From: a virus | DNA length: 64,000 bases | Direction: 5' to 3' (one strand) | Virus record (IMG/VR): IMGVR_UViG_3300033148_006102 | Location: 131,109 to 195,108 of that record | Part shown: piece by piece, positions 2,171 to 54,770 of the stretch | Layout: each line of letters begins with the position of its first letter | Position numbering within the stretch: the stretch's first letter is position 1 | Translations under genes and position numbers: made by a program | Notes under the pieces: generated by a model | What the model was told of the DNA's origin: nothing | What the model saw: the letters and a program-made list of their open reading frames with translations, nothing else | Database searches by the model: none

Positions 2171-3711
2171 TCATCAAAACTGACATAGGCGGCTGCTGGG
2201 TAGACGGCGAACCTACCTATCTCGTGCTGGGCACGCGTCAGTTCGAGAAGATCGCGTCGTCGGAAATCTATATTCCAGCACGAATGAAATTAGCGGTTGA
2301 CGCGTATCAGCCAGATGATGATCACGCTGGCGTCATCATTCACGGTTTGGGTAGTTCTGAGTATTGGGGACAGAATCGAAACGGCGACTTGTTCCCGGAG
2401 CAATGGGAAAAGCAGGCCAATCTCATTAATGATGATCCGACGAAGATGTGGGGTTATCACACCTTTGAGAAGAACGCATTCCCATTCCGGAATCACAATA
2501 ACAAGGATCCAAAATTTGCGCTTGGTCCGAAGGTTGTGTGCGCAGCATGGAATCCGAAGATGCATCGTGTCGAGGTCCTCGCGAAGATTGCACGAGCAGT
2601 CGCGCCGGATATTGCAGATAAGATTGATGCTGATGAACCATTGATGTGGTCAATGGGCGCCAAGGTTCCATTCGATGTATGTACAGGTTGTGGTCATCGT
2701 GCGAAGACGGCTATGGAATATTGTGACTGTCTTCGCTTTAAGCGGGGTCAGATCACGCCGAAGGGTATCAAGATCGGCATGGAGAATCCGAAGCCGAATT
2801 TCTTCGATATTTCACAAGTAGGACGCGGCGCAGATATTTCCGCATATTCTTTGGCGAAGGTTGCTGGACTTGCTAACTGGAGTGATGCGACGTGTGATCA
2901 AAAGCCTCAGTTCAACGTGCCAGCAGAAAAAACTTCAGTACTTTTTTCTGACAAAATAGGTCAGCGTGATTCGACTGCTGCAATCGATAAGGAAATTCCG
3001 ATGACTTCCGGAGATGCGACACCAGAGGAGGCGATCGGTCCAGAAGACATCGATGAAGAAACACTCAACCCTTGCCAAGAAGCAGTAGCAAACACAATGC
3101 ATCGGGCGCCGGCGCAGGCCACCATCATGATTCGCATGCGTGGAGAAGGCGCAGAAAAAATTCTTCCGATGCTTGCGCAACTCGGAATTATTCCAACGCC
3201 TGGTGAGGTAAAAGCGGCTGGTTGGTGCGTCAAAGATGTGCCTGAGAAACTTGCATTTACCTCCGGACAGACTACACAGTTATATGACCTCGTAGCACTG
3301 ATTCCGCAAAGATCATTATTCGGACCAGTGTTGGGAGATCGGCTTCTCAAACAGGGATTATATGAGGGGCCGTGGCAGGATGGGAGTGATCCTGTCTACC
3401 GCGCAGTTGTCCAATGCTATATGAAGACGGCTGCGGACCCGAAAGCCCTGGGTGCATGGATCAGCACCATTAATCCCAAAGCGATTATGGCTCATATTGA
3501 CCATGATCGTGGAACGGTCAAGGAGGCAGTTAGCTCGAATACGGCCGTTAAACTGATGTTAGTCCCGATGATCCTTGGTGGGATTTATTCTCACAAGGAA
3601 GCACAGGGTGAAAAGCTTAGCGGTATGGAGAGATTTATTGCTACGAATCCTTTGGCCGCTGGAATGTCGTTGAATTACCTGGCAATGAAATTGTTAGGTA
3701 GGAAAAAGTAG
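2167..3711 (+). CDS. Putative prohead (capsid maturation) protease with Zn-ribbon insertion
   Basis: Position upstream of scaffold-like genes and MCP; motifs NRNGDLF, HNNKD, WSMG, CTGCG...CDC and FFDISQVGRGAD resemble HK97/assemblin-type prohead proteases. Confidence 0.55.
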   Translation: MIIKTDIGGCWVDGEPTYLVLGTRQFEKIASSEIYIPARMKLAVDAYQPDDDHAGVIIHGLGSSEYWGQNRNGDLFPEQWEKQANLINDDPTKMWGYHTFEKNAFPFRNHNNKDPKFALGPKVVCAAWNPKMHRVEVLAKIARAVAPDIADKIDADEPLMWSMGAKVPFDVCTGCGHRAKTAMEYCDCLRFKRGQITPKGIKIGMENPKPNFFDISQVGRGADISAYSLAKVAGLANWSDATCDQKPQFNVPAEKTSVLFSDKIGQRDSTAAIDKEIPMTSGDATPEEAIGPEDIDEETLNPCQEAVANTMHRAPAQATIMIRMRGEGAEKILPMLAQLGIIPTPGEVKAAGWCVKDVPEKLAFTSGQTTQLYDLVALIPQRSLFGPVLGDRLLKQGLYEGPWQDGSDPVYRAVVQCYMKTAADPKALGAWISTINPKAIMAHIDHDRGTVKEAVSSNTAVKLMLVPMILGGIYSHKEAQGEKLSGMERFIATNPLAAGMSLNYLAMKLLGRKK

Positions 3712-6409: not shown

Positions 6410-7540
6410 ATGGCACTTGATGCTGCTGAATTCAATGGCCTCTTCTTTGGCGCCATGAAGCAAGGTGACGCGGGGATCGAAAAGCTTTCGGCTTCGCTTG
6501 GAACATACATCCAGGAGAAGATTCGTGAGTCTGGTTTTGCCCGCCGCATCCTTGACACTCAGACTGTGACGCCACAAGAGTGCCAGATTAGCCCGGAACA
6601 CAACGGGCTAGAGTTCCTCGTACCGCTCGAGCCACAGACCGTGGCCCAGCGGGTGACTTTCCGTGGTGAACCGGATCACACTTGGATCGAGAAGAAAATC
6701 TTCCCGATTCGGTTTGAGACGATCATGACGGACGAGTTCAACAAGACCGAGGAAGAATTGATGGCTCACCGTGAGCCTGTGCTCAAGATCATTGAGCAAA
6801 ACTCGGTTAAGGACATCCAGGAGCAGGAGGACGTGTCCTTCCTGACCCAGGTGAAGGCTGCTGCTTTCGCGTCCACCTATCGCCTCAACCGCGTCGCGGT
6901 TGGTGCCGGCGGTGTTGTCGGTTTCACGACCGGCGCACAGGTCGATGCGTTCTTCAAGTCTGGCGCGACGCCAGCCAATCCGGAGAACTCCAATATCGTC
7001 CTCTCCGCCAACACTTACTTCCGTCGTGATGTACTGACGGAACTTTCTCAGATTCTGACCATGCGTCAGCTCGAGCTCAAGGTGTTCTTGCTCCACAAGT
7101 ACAACTTTGATGAGACGCTGCGCTGGTTCGCAGATGAAATCGGCCACCAGGTTGCCAACTCCATCACCATTGATGGGTACAAGGAATCAACCGTCGGTGG
7201 TTTCACGTTCATCACCACGATCAAGACGAACCGCGAGCTCGTCCGTGCCGGCCATATCTACGGATTCGCCGACAAGGCCGCTCTCGGCAAGTTCCTGATC
7301 CTGACCGGAACCAAGTTCTGGATCAACAAGCGCCGTAACGTTATCACGATGGCCGGATGGGAAACCATCGGTGCCGGTATTGGTAACATCAACGGCTGCG
7401 CGATCCTGCTGCTTGCCGGTTCCGTTCCGCTGGACGTGAACGTGCCTTCTGATGTGAATGCTGCTGTCGGTGCGCCGACCACCATCCGGATTTATCCGAT
7501 CGGGGTGGCAAGAGCCGGAGGTGCTTTACCGCATCAGTAA
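6410..7540 (+). CDS. Major capsid protein (HK97-fold, inferred)
   Basis: 376 aa; strongly biased C-ending codons; AAGGAAG SD; position between head and neck genes. Confidence 0.7.
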   Translation: MALDAAEFNGLFFGAMKQGDAGIEKLSASLGTYIQEKIRESGFARRILDTQTVTPQECQISPEHNGLEFLVPLEPQTVAQRVTFRGEPDHTWIEKKIFPIRFETIMTDEFNKTEEELMAHREPVLKIIEQNSVKDIQEQEDVSFLTQVKAAAFASTYRLNRVAVGAGGVVGFTTGAQVDAFFKSGATPANPENSNIVLSANTYFRRDVLTELSQILTMRQLELKVFLLHKYNFDETLRWFADEIGHQVANSITIDGYKESTVGGFTFITTIKTNRELVRAGHIYGFADKAALGKFLILTGTKFWINKRRNVITMAGWETIGAGIGNINGCAILLLAGSVPLDVNVPSDVNAAVGAPTTIRIYPIGVARAGGALPHQ

Positions 7541-52064: not shown

Positions 52065-53269
52065 GGAGAGCGGATGAGCATAATCTCATGCTCTTCTCTT
52101 TCTGGATTAAGTATATGGCGCCACATATGTTCCCGCACGTCCGTATATTGAATCGACGTGTAGATTGTACGTGCATCAGAATCCGAGCGCCGATCATTGA
52201 TGAAGTCGCCAATTACTTGTGCTGGTACAGCCGTATCCATGTCGATGATCAAGTACCGGGATTCGAGAACTGCTTCTTCGTAATACAATGCTTCTGTACC
52301 AGGACGACCATCGAGCATATGCAACACCAGGGTAGGCGGTTGGTTGTCTGGTGCTTGCTTGGCCGCGTAGAGCGAACTAGCCCTAACAGTCATGCAACTT
52401 GCGTACGGCTTTTCCGTCGTAGGTCTTGTATGGAAATACATGCGGTCTCGCACGTTTTCAGGTGTGTCGTCTTTACGAACACGTTCACAGGCCCATGAGA
52501 AGTTGGATGCGAAATTGAGGATTTCGCCGGGACTCCACGGCCCAACCAGTACAACATCGGTTCGTTCTTTTGCCGCAATGGTCGCCCAATCGTCATGGAT
52601 TGCGTGTGGCAAAGTGTTTGTCCAGTGGATCGCACAAGGCGCCGGATGTTGACGTTTCAATCTACGATCATTGTCGGACCATTCTTCCGACCCCTGGCAA
52701 ACACTGATCATACGACTGATGTCGCGTTCTATTTCAGGTGTTTCACCTTGCATGTTGGTGGTGACCAGCAGCGTAATATCGAAATCGCGAATTGTATCTA
52801 AGATAGCCGGCCAAACTTCAATCGAAAACTCAGATTGCTTGGACGCACCGTAGTCGTCAATAAGTAATACACCTTTGCGTAGTGGTAGCCCCAAGTAACC
52901 TTGTAAAGCGGTGATCAGACCTAGCTGTGGGCCGGTTTTGTCGTAGCATATCTGTCGTAGTTTATTTAACAGACCTCCAGCTGTGATTGCCATCACCGGT
53001 TGGCCGGCTAACGCACAAGCACGAAGGTATGCTTGTAAGGCAAATGTTTTACCTACACCAACAGGACCGTTTACGTGTAGACCTTTGCCCGCCACGAAAC
53101 GTTCAAAAACCGTATCACGACGTTTACTCGGGTAGATATCTTCAAAGGTCGCTGAGAGATTGTATATTTTGCAAAGGTTAATTCGTCGTAGCTGCTCAAC
53201 TAACGGCAGGTCTTTGAGCACTTTCTGCTCTCTGCTAGTTAGCTGATAATACTTTTCGTGTTCGTTCAC
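52061..53269 (-). CDS. DnaC/IstB-like AAA+ ATPase (helicase loader) with a second degenerate domain
   Basis: GPVGVGKT, LLIDDYG, TTN, R..S. Confidence 0.78.
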   Translation of the reverse strand: MNEHEKYYQLTSREQKVLKDLPLVEQLRRINLCKIYNLSATFEDIYPSKRRDTVFERFVAGKGLHVNGPVGVGKTFALQAYLRACALAGQPVMAITAGGLLNKLRQICYDKTGPQLGLITALQGYLGLPLRKGVLLIDDYGASKQSEFSIEVWPAILDTIRDFDITLLVTTNMQGETPEIERDISRMISVCQGSEEWSDNDRRLKRQHPAPCAIHWTNTLPHAIHDDWATIAAKERTDVVLVGPWSPGEILNFASNFSWACERVRKDDTPENVRDRMYFHTRPTTEKPYASCMTVRASSLYAAKQAPDNQPPTLVLHMLDGRPGTEALYYEEAVLESRYLIIDMDTAVPAQVIGDFINDRRSDSDARTIYTSIQYTDVREHMWRHILNPEREEHEIMLIRSP

Positions 53270-54576
53270 ACCAACCCTCGTTCATTTAATCCTTTCAAAA
53301 TGGTGTCGTAGGGCAAACCATAACGCGTGCCCTCTTCAACCCAGCCTGGCTCTTCGGCGTCGTTTGCTCCGATGCCTATGTATTGTTTCAGCGTGTTCGG
53401 GATTTGCCCGTTCATCGCACGAATAATTTCATCTGGTGCTACGCGCACGTCAATGATCACGGCTTGATCATCGCCGATATCCCATTTGACTTCAAACTCA
53501 TTTCGTACATCAGCGACGTTTCGGTTATCGTCGTTATTAGTACGTGAGATCTGTACCGCGTTGGAGAATGTCTTGTCAGATGTGAATGGCGCAATCCATT
53601 CAGCTTTTCGACGAAGGTGGTAGTCCTTCTCAATCCAACTGAGCAACGATCCCGGTATATAGTTTGTGAACTTCGGATTATCGATAAACGGCGTGACAGC
53701 CTTCACGTACTCACGAAGCTTTTCTGCAAGTCGCCCGTTGGGTAATACACGCAATGCTTCTCTAAGTAACTCCTTCAACTTTGGAGTAACTTTTGACGCT
53801 TTCGGGTATGTTGCAACGAGGTACCGCACAACTTCAATGAATGCCGCAGTATCTTCAATACCGCGCTTAACACGAGTTGATTCACCGCCTGCGAGTGTCT
53901 TGTCCATATTTCGACGGCGTTTAAGTCGTCTTTTGGGTGTACTTGGGTGTGCCGCGTTAGCGGAACCTTCATCTACTTCCGTACTGGATATACTTCTCTC
54001 TTTATCTACTTTGTCGGAAGTATCCTTCCGGTCCAGAGCGGAAGTATCCTGCCGGTCATGATCGGAAGTATTCTTCCGGTCTGTATAGGAAGTATTCTTC
54101 CGGTCCATAGTTTCGTCGTAAGTATCGTCATCATCAGTACTTGTAGCCGATTTTATTGCTTTTTTGTTGGTACCGTTTTTACGTCGTTTCATCTCCAGCT
54201 TGACGGTATCTTCAACAGCTTCTTCAAGGATCATGAATCGATCCGGGATACGCAGAATCACGTATTTGTTGGTCATGTTCATGCCGCGACGCTCGACGGC
54301 CACAAGTTCAAGATCTTTGAGCTCTTTAGTATAAGTTCGTATTTGGCGTTCGCTGATACCCATGTAGGCGGCTAACCGAAATTGGCCTGGCCAGCATCCG
54401 CGTCGCTTGCTCCACGCGAAGCTCAACAGCATACCGTATAGAATCTTGGCGCCGTGTGAGATATTTGGGTTACGCATTACGGAGATTGGATAACGGATGA
54501 AGGGTTCATCCCCAGAGAAGGATGCTTGAACATCGTCAGCGAATGCAACATTCACTTCGTCTGAGTGTTTACTCAT
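53266..54576 (-). CDS. Phage replication initiator (N-terminal winged HTH)
   Basis: ISHGAKILY..L...CWPGQ..LA..MG.SER.I....KEL....LV; lies upstream of the DnaC-like gene; contains iterons. Confidence 0.75.
   Translation of the reverse strand: MSKHSDEVNVAFADDVQASFSGDEPFIRYPISVMRNPNISHGAKILYGMLLSFAWSKRRGCWPGQFRLAAYMGISERQIRTYTKELKDLELVAVERRGMNMTNKYVILRIPDRFMILEEAVEDTVKLEMKRRKNGTNKKAIKSATSTDDDDTYDETMDRKNTSYTDRKNTSDHDRQDTSALDRKDTSDKVDKERSISSTEVDEGSANAAHPSTPKRRLKRRRNMDKTLAGGESTRVKRGIEDTAAFIEVVRYLVATYPKASKVTPKLKELLREALRVLPNGRLAEKLREYVKAVTPFIDNPKFTNYIPGSLLSWIEKDYHLRRKAEWIAPFTSDKTFSNAVQISRTNNDDNRNVADVRNEFEVKWDIGDDQAVIIDVRVAPDEIIRAMNGQIPNTLKQYIGIGANDAEEPGWVEEGTRYGLPYDTILKGLNERGLV
54015..54105. repeat. 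Four 19-bp direct repeats at 24-bp period (iteron-like origin)
   Basis: CGGAAGTATCCTTCCGGTC (54015), CGGAAGTATCCTGCCGGTC (54039), CGGAAGTATTCTTCCGGTC (54063), AGGAAGTATTCTTCCGGTC (54087). Confidence 0.85.
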
Positions 54577-54590
54577 GATAGTCCTTGTGT

Positions 54591-54676
54591 TGGGGCTGCA
54601 ATGGGAGTCGAACCCATGTCTCCGAGAATCGTACGCGTCCGATAGTTCGGTATCCTAGTCGCTAGACGATACAGCC
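54591..54676 (-). tRNA. tRNA-like RNA with an elongated anticodon arm; isotype undetermined
   Basis: Acceptor GGCTGTA/TGCAGCC, D arm GTCT-AGCGACT-AGGAT, T arm ATGGG-TTCGACT-CCCAT; the anticodon arm is 29 nt instead of 17. Confidence 0.65.
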
Positions 54677-54700
54677 ATAAAGCCCACTACCTGATATGAG

Positions 54701-54738
54701 GCGGGGCACGAGTATATGCCCCGCCCACAGCAAGTCAA
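54701..54738 (-). promoter_or_regulatory. Sigma70-like promoter with the -10 box inside an 8-bp inverted repeat
   Basis: TTGACT (54738-54733), 16-nt spacer, TATACT (54716-54711); GCGGGGCA/TGCCCCGC arms at 54701-54708 and 54717-54724. Confidence 0.6.
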
Positions 54739-54747
54739 TAGATGAAT

Positions 54748-54770
54748 CTGGGATTATGCCGTAGTACCAG
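54748..54770 (-). promoter_or_regulatory. 23-bp quasi-palindrome, copy 8
   Basis: Minus strand reads CTGGTACTAC GGC ATAATCCCAG; overlaps a stop codon and lies 9 nt upstream of the -35 box. Confidence 0.82.

Follow-up and report, generated by a model that had tools for sequence, protein, structure and literature searches.

A tRNA-Glu-like element, apparently unable to decode and with a hairpin in place of its anticodon, precedes the replication-initiator gene of a large phage

The window analysed here comprises the last 64 kb of a complete virus record of 195,108 bp with direct terminal repeats. On its minus strand lies a replication-initiator gene, which is followed by a gene for a DnaC-like loader and preceded, within 14 nt of its start codon, by a tRNA-shaped element (Table 1). 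Inside the initiator gene, at 54014-54107, Tandem Repeats Finder detected 3.9 copies of a 24-bp unit (TCGGAAGTATCCTTCCGGTCCAGA, plus strand) with the inner palindrome CGGAAG-N4-CTTCCG, presumably an iteron origin; the pattern CGGAA-N7-TTCCG was absent from the initiator gene. Upstream of the element we found a sigma-70-like promoter with a predicted transcription start near 54704. A perfect 9-bp G+C-rich inverted repeat, of which 0.02 would be expected by chance, surrounds the -10 hexamer; it is not followed by a U tract and could be an operator or a 3'-protective hairpin of read-through transcripts cut at the element. Farther upstream, a palindromic site of about 23 bp lies over the stop codon of the upstream ORF, 9 nt 5' of the -35 hexamer. 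When the 195-kb genome was scanned on both strands with the half-site 13-mer CATAATCCCAGAT, allowing at most two mismatches, 28 matches were obtained, several of which were weak and had no convincing partner half-site. Within the window the site was seen near 1503, 11227, 29761, 43608, 51195, 54758 and 62973, in genes as well as between them. It may be bound by a dimeric DNA-binding protein or, as RNA, form a hairpin. Both the promoter-like site and this palindrome had been pointed out in an earlier note made from the sequence, and both are indeed there.

Table 1. Coordinates of the features at the initiator locus (positions in the window).
Feature	Position	Strand	Evidence and details
Replication-initiator gene	53266..54576	-	HTH_36; PHROG replication-initiation families
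CCA and 14-nt spacer with SD AAGGA	54577..54593	-	CCA 54593-54591, AAGGA 54586-54582; ATG at 54576
tRNA-Glu-type cloverleaf without anticodon	54594..54676	-	Sequence, Rfam, RNAfold, comparison with phage tRNAs
16-nt hairpin ATCG-GACGCGTA-CGAT	54628..54643	-	Stands at positions 34-37; sequence, RNAfold
Perfect 9-bp G+C-rich inverted repeat GGCGGGGCA-N8-TGCCCCGCC	54700..54725	.	0.02 expected by chance
Sigma-70-like promoter TTGACT-16 nt-TATACT	54711..54738	-	10/12 matches, consensus match only
Palindromic ~23-bp site, consensus CTGGGAyTAtgGCATAaTCCCAG	54748..54770	.	Half-site scan

ARAGORN placed all of the phage's 28 tRNA genes on the plus strand, within 66.8-85 kb of the 195-kb record. The record also encodes a tmRNA (69 bits) and a TROVE/Ro60-like gene. 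The host is considered bacterial because the promoters are sigma-70-like and the SD sequences clear, and the phage tmRNA marks a bacterial host as well. The hexamers CCCGGG, CCTAGG, CTTAAG and GGGCCC do not occur at all in the 195-kb genome (5-10 expected for each), which suggests restriction-site avoidance, and GAGCTC and CTCGAG are over-represented across it. No relative of the initiator protein was found among 5.8 billion proteins, and queries with the DnaC-like loader and an upstream 200-aa gene yielded no relatives of the locus. An exact 30-mer of the element had no match in the collections searched, a degenerate pattern of it returned only the contig of one look-alike (L019, see below) from metagenome contigs, and blastn against isolated phages gave matches at the level of the T arm only. 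A search of sequencing runs with the element listed no RNA run and one DNA run with a small share of its words.

Read on the minus strand from G1 (54676) to the last acceptor base (54594), the element agrees letter for letter with the earlier note. In its cloverleaf the acceptor stem has 7 bp, the D arm is of the Glu type, the anticodon arm spans 29 nt (54622-54650), the variable loop is AGAC (4 nt) and the T arm is canonical. The Rfam tRNA model (RF00005) scored it at 39.7 bits over model positions 1-71, above the gathering score of 29, with an E-value of 7e-7 in a local search and of 5e-8 in a whole-genome search; the alignment placed 17 nt in the anticodon loop, compared with 5 in the model. 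ARAGORN did not call the element with the intron option on or off, and a window-wide Rfam run with default filters missed it. RNAfold gave the acceptor stem and the T arm. It folded the anticodon arm into two 4-bp helices separated by a 3x2 internal loop, with an 8-nt loop at the tip, i.e. the same two-step arm that had been drawn before. The structure was the same for the element alone and inside the whole predicted leader, in the fold of which the SD of the initiator is unpaired. In neither case was the fold energy better than that of shuffled sequences (z = -1.0 for the element), which is usual and uninformative for tRNAs. All 24 base pairs are intact, eight of them in the new arm. The element is a genuine tRNA homologue.

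The element departs from a decoding tRNA at several places. The canonical anticodon loop of 7 nt is absent, and 19 nt lie between the 4-bp outer stem strands. C32 and U33 are kept, and positions 31 and 39 form an A.C mismatch. On the cleanest reading, positions 34-37 are replaced by the 16-nt hairpin. Read as DNA, this insert is palindromic around ACGCGT, with no spacer and one mismatch, and the loop of the RNA holds ACGCGU. The D loop (AGCGACUA) has one G at the expected place and has lost G19, while both tRNA-Glu genes of the phage have GG; the previous claim that GG is lacking thus holds for the second G and fails for the other one, which is still there. At the 3' end CCA follows directly after pair 1-72, as had been described, and the discriminator base is missing; an alternative reading is C73 followed by CAA. 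Because N73-CCA is encoded in all 28 ARAGORN tRNAs of the phage, the CCA without a discriminator is a true departure. The contention that this is not a decoding tRNA stands, given the lack of a 7-nt anticodon loop, the loss of G19 and the missing discriminator.

When the anticodon arm is set aside, the genome's closest match to the element is the phage's own tRNA-Glu(CUC), with 75% identity. Both have the Glu-type D arm (U11-A24, U13-G22), the AGAC variable loop and most of the acceptor stem in common. Between them there are eight stem substitutions, and pairing is kept in all: from tRNA-Glu(CUC) to the element, the changes at 4-69 (C-G to U-A), 49-65 (G-C to A-U) and 50-64 (A-U to U-A) are double compensatory, and those at 6-67 (C-G to U-G) and 1-72 (G-U to G-C) also leave a pair. 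In random sets of eight such substitutions, all pairs survived only about once in 10,000. This shows that the cloverleaf was under selection at some time; it does not follow that selection continued after the anticodon was lost, and the compensatory changes may be older than this loss. The element, which is solitary, on the minus strand and about 100 kb from the tRNA island, is best explained as a paralogue of the phage's tRNA-Glu that lost decoding.

The position of the element was compared with that of the true tRNAs. An SD and the start codon of an ORF (at least 60 codons) lie 14-26 nt after the CCA in 11 of the 28, and 'tRNA, short spacer with SD, ORF' is therefore a standard module in this phage. 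The distance from CCA to start codon is, for example, 14 nt for Arg(CCG), Val(GAC) and Gln(UUG), 15 nt for Arg(ACG), 17 nt for Trp, 18 nt for Glu(UUC) and 19 nt for Ser(GCU). Since the element and the initiator gene show the same layout with a spacer of 14 nt, they can be read as a displaced copy of the module with a non-decoding tRNA. The spacer of the element shares the 8-mer CACAAGGA with the spacer after the phage tRNA-Glu(UUC). Spacers resembling TTGAAAGGA are frequent after the phage tRNAs that precede an SD and a start codon. Maturation of the tRNAs probably creates the 5' ends of many phage mRNAs.

The best-supported role, in our judgement an evenly balanced proposition, is that the element acts in cis as an RNase P and 3'-end processing or stabilising leader of the initiator operon. 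It would then form the first ~110 nt of the operon transcript, which would start at the promoter or arrive by read-through from upstream. The features that tRNA-processing enzymes recognise are all kept: the acceptor stem (7 bp) is stacked on the T stem (5 bp), the T loop is canonical, and U stands at -1, G at +1 and CCA at the 3' end. A cut by RNase P at G1 would remove the 5' leader, and in read-through transcripts the same cut would leave the upstream mRNA with a G+C-rich hairpin at its end. Thereafter, 3' processing at or after the CCA could yield an initiator mRNA with a ~14-nt leader carrying the SD, or the compact tRNA-like fold could remain as a protective 5' domain. We infer that the element is transcribed and cut, as we do any influence on the expression of the initiator. 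The idea of a processing signal, which the earlier note had already offered, is supported indirectly by the layout, with SD and start codon 14-26 nt after true tRNAs and likewise after the element, and the cleavage itself is a prediction. The weak point of the processing model is that any ordinary tRNA would serve, so that the exchange of the anticodon for a structured, near-palindromic hairpin goes unexplained. Moreover, the loss of G19 may weaken the elbow read by RNase P, and the misplaced CCA may disturb the RCCA contact with the enzyme. A further counterargument to a leader role comes from three look-alikes in other phages (L014, L016 and L017), which sit in tRNA arrays and not 5' of ORFs.

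The proposed arrangement has several parallels. tRNA genes directly 5' of ORFs in one transcript, with tRNA maturation making the 5' end of the mRNA, are found in the thrU-tyrU-glyT-thrT-tufB operon of E. coli and in the tRNA region of T4. These co-transcripts, and those of the phage's own tRNA island, resemble the element in layout; however, their tRNAs decode and the element does not. RNase P substrates also include tRNA-like elements such as t-elements and MALAT1/mascRNA, and polycistronic mRNAs (review PMC4919922). With mitochondrial tRNA punctuation, plant mitochondrial t-elements and MALAT1/mascRNA the element shares a non-decoding tRNA-shaped fold beside an mRNA or long RNA, whose ends are set there by RNase P and 3' processing (PMC4919922). 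An acceptor and T-arm mimic adjoining an mRNA end, as in t-elements and mascRNA, was found at our locus in the form of a 12-bp acceptor/T stack with a canonical T loop, 14 nt from the initiator start codon and with a promoter-like site on its 5' side. Those systems are organellar or nuclear, whereas the element belongs to a phage, stands at the 5' end of a replication operon, has its cleavage predicted, and keeps the full Glu-type cloverleaf with a rebuilt anticodon arm. For phage leader RNAs, the same review relates that RNase P cuts the C4 precursor of P1/P7 (Hartmann et al. 1995, via PMC4919922). C4 is likewise a structured leader RNA of a phage operon, released by RNase P from the transcript of the downstream genes; in contrast to the element it has no cloverleaf fold and works as an antisense RNA that base-pairs to downstream mRNA. 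Complementarity of this kind between the element and its downstream mRNA was not found.

The design itself is identical to the tRNA scaffold of Ponchon and Dardel, in which the acceptor, D and T arms are kept and a hairpin insert takes the place of the anticodon stem-loop (PMC3753655). Such engineered scaffolds gave precise processing and stability in E. coli (PMC3753655). The scaffold is an artificial construct whose cargo RNA the experimenter selects, while the 16-nt cargo of the element is natural. YrlA-type Y RNA and tmRNA are also non-decoding tRNA mimics, and both kinds are encoded by the same phage. YrlA is circularly permuted with a Ro60-binding stem, and tmRNA, which carries a reading frame, has neither a D arm nor an anticodon arm; the element fits neither RNA, with no match to the YrlA model (RF02553) and with 15 bits for the tmRNA model, below the family cut-off of 47. 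If the processing model is true, the phage uses tRNA folds as general mRNA punctuation and has recycled one of them, devoid of decoding, to head its initiator operon, which would give mitochondrial tRNA punctuation a counterpart in a bacterial virus and the engineered tRNA scaffold a natural version. Most likely the element is a modest variation on known tRNA-like processing elements.

Look-alikes were sought in viral contigs by scanning for a Glu-type D arm and a T loop 30-46 nt apart. The scan produced 16 loci from about 11 unrelated lineages, in most of which the anticodon arm is a longer hairpin without a recognisable anticodon loop. L019 has the outer stem CCGA/UCGG and the AGAC variable loop of the element. 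L014, L016 and L017 lie inside tRNA arrays beside a normal tRNA-Glu, and L015 (27 nt), L021 (4 nt, helicase), L013 (21 nt, large terminase) and L020 stand just 5' of an ORF, as the element does. ARAGORN gave no call for at least five of the phage look-alikes, and three others were mis-called, implausibly as tRNA-Pro(AGG) of 92 nt. No kinship was found between the contigs of these phages and the phage studied here. Perfect zero-spacer palindromes of 8-10 bp form the tips in 6 of ~18 independent families (GCTGCAGC, CTCGCGCGAG, CCTCGAGG, GATGCATC, GGTGGCCACC and CGCAATTGCG), for which the nominal binomial P of ~6e-4 is post hoc; the element and L014/L017 have 6-nt palindromes inside loops of 7-8 nt, and 6-mers alone are expected in about one third of inserts by chance. 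A template-switch origin, a DNA site and loop-loop dimerisation are possible readings of the palindromic tips. Retroviral dimerisation hairpins are known to pair tip to tip through palindromic loops.

The same scan of prokaryote genomes returned mostly archaeal intron-containing tRNAs, together with an actinomycete family from Streptomyces, Saccharothrix and Microtetraspora. Its members have a 5-bp anticodon stem, C32 and U33, a hairpin capped by UUCG, CUCG or GCAA in place of positions 34-37 and a single loop base on the 3' side (A38). In an alignment of eight members (A1) the new arm is paired in 98.6% of cells, with three pairs changed on both sides, and the observed covariation was reached by no shuffle. 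These genes resemble the element in the Glu D arm, the stem with C32 and U33, the capped hairpin, the one 3' loop base and the 4-nt variable loop. They differ from it in the length of the hairpin (11-13 nt) and its cap, in the lack of an encoded CCA, in a weaker acceptor top and in having no conserved downstream gene. Neither a conserved downstream or neighbouring gene nor an integrase was found at the actinomycete loci (L028, L039, L042, L043, L071, L079, L100, L107, L116, L124, L126, L128-L130 and L138). Rfam scores these Glu-type genes as weak tRNAs only, and our search found no publications describing them. Glu bodies with a hairpin for the anticodon in many unrelated phages and in actinomycetes are possibly an unrecognised class of tRNA mimics, which may matter more than the element itself; the wider class is the more interesting lead.

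The element could instead be a mimic of tRNA-Glu acting in trans, where a released RNA of ~85 nt titrates a host factor that reads the tRNA body and not the anticodon, the position in the operon giving only the timing. Candidate partners are defence nucleases or toxins that target tRNAs, GluRS, toxins directed against GluRS, modification enzymes and the phage's own Ro60. Retention of the Glu-type 'augmented D helix' (U11-A24, U13-G22, 4-nt variable loop) with the decoding parts gone is in line with such a role, as are the occurrence of hairpin-for-anticodon Glu scaffolds in about 11 unrelated phage lineages, some of them in arrays beside normal tRNA-Glu, and the covariation in the new arm of the actinomycete family of the same design. 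With genes for a TROVE/Ro60-like protein and a tmRNA, the phage invests in tRNA-like RNA biology, which also speaks for a mimic. GluRS identity, on the other hand, leans heavily on the anticodon, and the known anticodon nucleases read the anticodon loop, which is gone from the element. Phage tRNAs have been proposed as a counter to tRNA-targeting defences (PMC10264068), a further point on the side of the mimic. Against it, no partner was identified, the look-alikes are analogous with inserts that have no common sequence and no demonstrable homology, and the loss of the discriminator and G19 suggests a relaxed constraint on tRNA-like function. On balance we consider a trans-acting mimic unlikely. 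Equally tentative is the broader form of this idea, according to which anticodon-less Glu scaffolds would make up a class of small RNAs that recurs and is under selection in large phages and actinomycetes, processed like tRNAs and acting in trans as decoys or sponges for readers of the tRNA-Glu body, perhaps with tip-to-tip pairing, and the element would be a member co-expressed with replication genes.

A functionless relic is likewise improbable; on this view, a small palindromic insertion or a template-switch mutation in the anticodon loop inactivated a duplicated tRNA-Glu gene, and its position in the 5' leader allowed it to persist. The element is a singleton without conserved relatives, it departs from the canon in three independent ways (anticodon arm, G19 and discriminator), its fold energy does not exceed that of shuffles, and odd inserts and duplications are common in the tRNA genes of viral contigs (e.g. 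L014:5119-5229), all as expected of a relic. Yet 24 of 24 base pairs are intact, including those of the new arm, the insert lengthens the helix instead of breaking it, and in this tightly packed genome a promoter and an SD frame the element like a working tRNA-ORF module. The symmetry of the insert raises the very doubtful alternative that a dimeric regulator, which may be the HTH initiator itself, uses the 16 bp as an operator, located ~60 bp downstream of the transcription start and merely carried by the tRNA-like gene. A zero-spacer palindrome with one mismatch fits a DNA-level site, and perfect zero-spacer tips in 6 of ~18 look-alike families are odd for RNA hairpins. An operator role is, however, unsupported beyond the symmetry, because the 16-bp near-palindrome has no second copy within the 64-kb window and ACGCGT is ordinary in the genome (60 copies, near expectation). 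Also, the iterons in the initiator gene differ in sequence from it, and look-alikes of other phages occupy tRNA arrays, where an operator makes little sense. On the copy number of ACGCGT a restriction-site reading was rejected as well, and a similarity between the arm and the iterons, with ~8/11 matches by eye, was no better than chance. The earlier suggestion of a removable insert fared worst, and we disfavour as extremely improbable that the element is a real tRNA from which 12 nt are removed, e.g. to give the loop CUAUCGU (anticodon AUC, Asp) and supply a missing isotype. ARAGORN indeed found no Asp tRNA among the phage's 28, and removal of 12 nt would leave a 17-nt arm with C32 and U33 in place. 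When the 12-nt deletions were enumerated by hand, none produced a Glu anticodon, and the best of them (AUC) had a poor loop; with A34 on a Glu body, the A31.C39 mismatch and no discriminator, the resulting tRNA would be a poor one. The arm has no bulge-helix-bulge motif, in which a 4-bp helix carries a 3-nt bulge at each end, the two bulges on opposite strands; here the unpaired ACU and UC share one end of the 4-bp helix, which the 8-nt loop closes at the other. In the phage genome there was no match to the splicing endonuclease (PF01974) or RtcB (PF01139) families, for which controls matched, and no CCA-adding enzyme. Splicing of the insert is unlikely since the bulge-helix-bulge geometry does not fit and the phage has none of these enzymes. 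The host is bacterial (tmRNA, SD, sigma-70-like promoter), and in bacterial tRNA genes only group I introns are known, which are far larger than the insert.

A second scan with a different D arm detected more than 120 viral tRNA genes with 10-28 extra nt; some had intron-like inserts or extra variable arms, and others were further hairpins that lack an anticodon. Unusual derivatives of tRNA are therefore widespread among uncultivated viruses, and the Glu scaffold does not stand alone. A 111-nt tRNA-Leu-like gene (L014:5119-5229) contains a ~30-nt tandem duplication from the D arm to the anticodon region and illustrates how long, unusual tRNA genes come about in phage arrays. The tRNA-Arg(CCU)-like genes of two viral contigs (L235 and L239) have a hairpin inserted 5' of an intact anticodon, with compensatory stems (UCCGG/CCGGA versus GAGGG/CCCUC) and a conserved UCGAAA loop; this structured insert may need removal or may be tolerated. 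A virus record unrelated to the phage studied here (G001, behind L009; 195,095 bases, ~53% complete) gave 42 matches to the tRNA model, four of which were 108-121 nt long. Finally, the 310-kb contig of a jumbo phage (L011) carries at least three anticodon-less tRNA-like genes, at 2587-2655, 3172-3245 and 7032-7113: one with a 3-nt loop on the anticodon stem, one with a GUAA-capped extension and one Glu-type look-alike.
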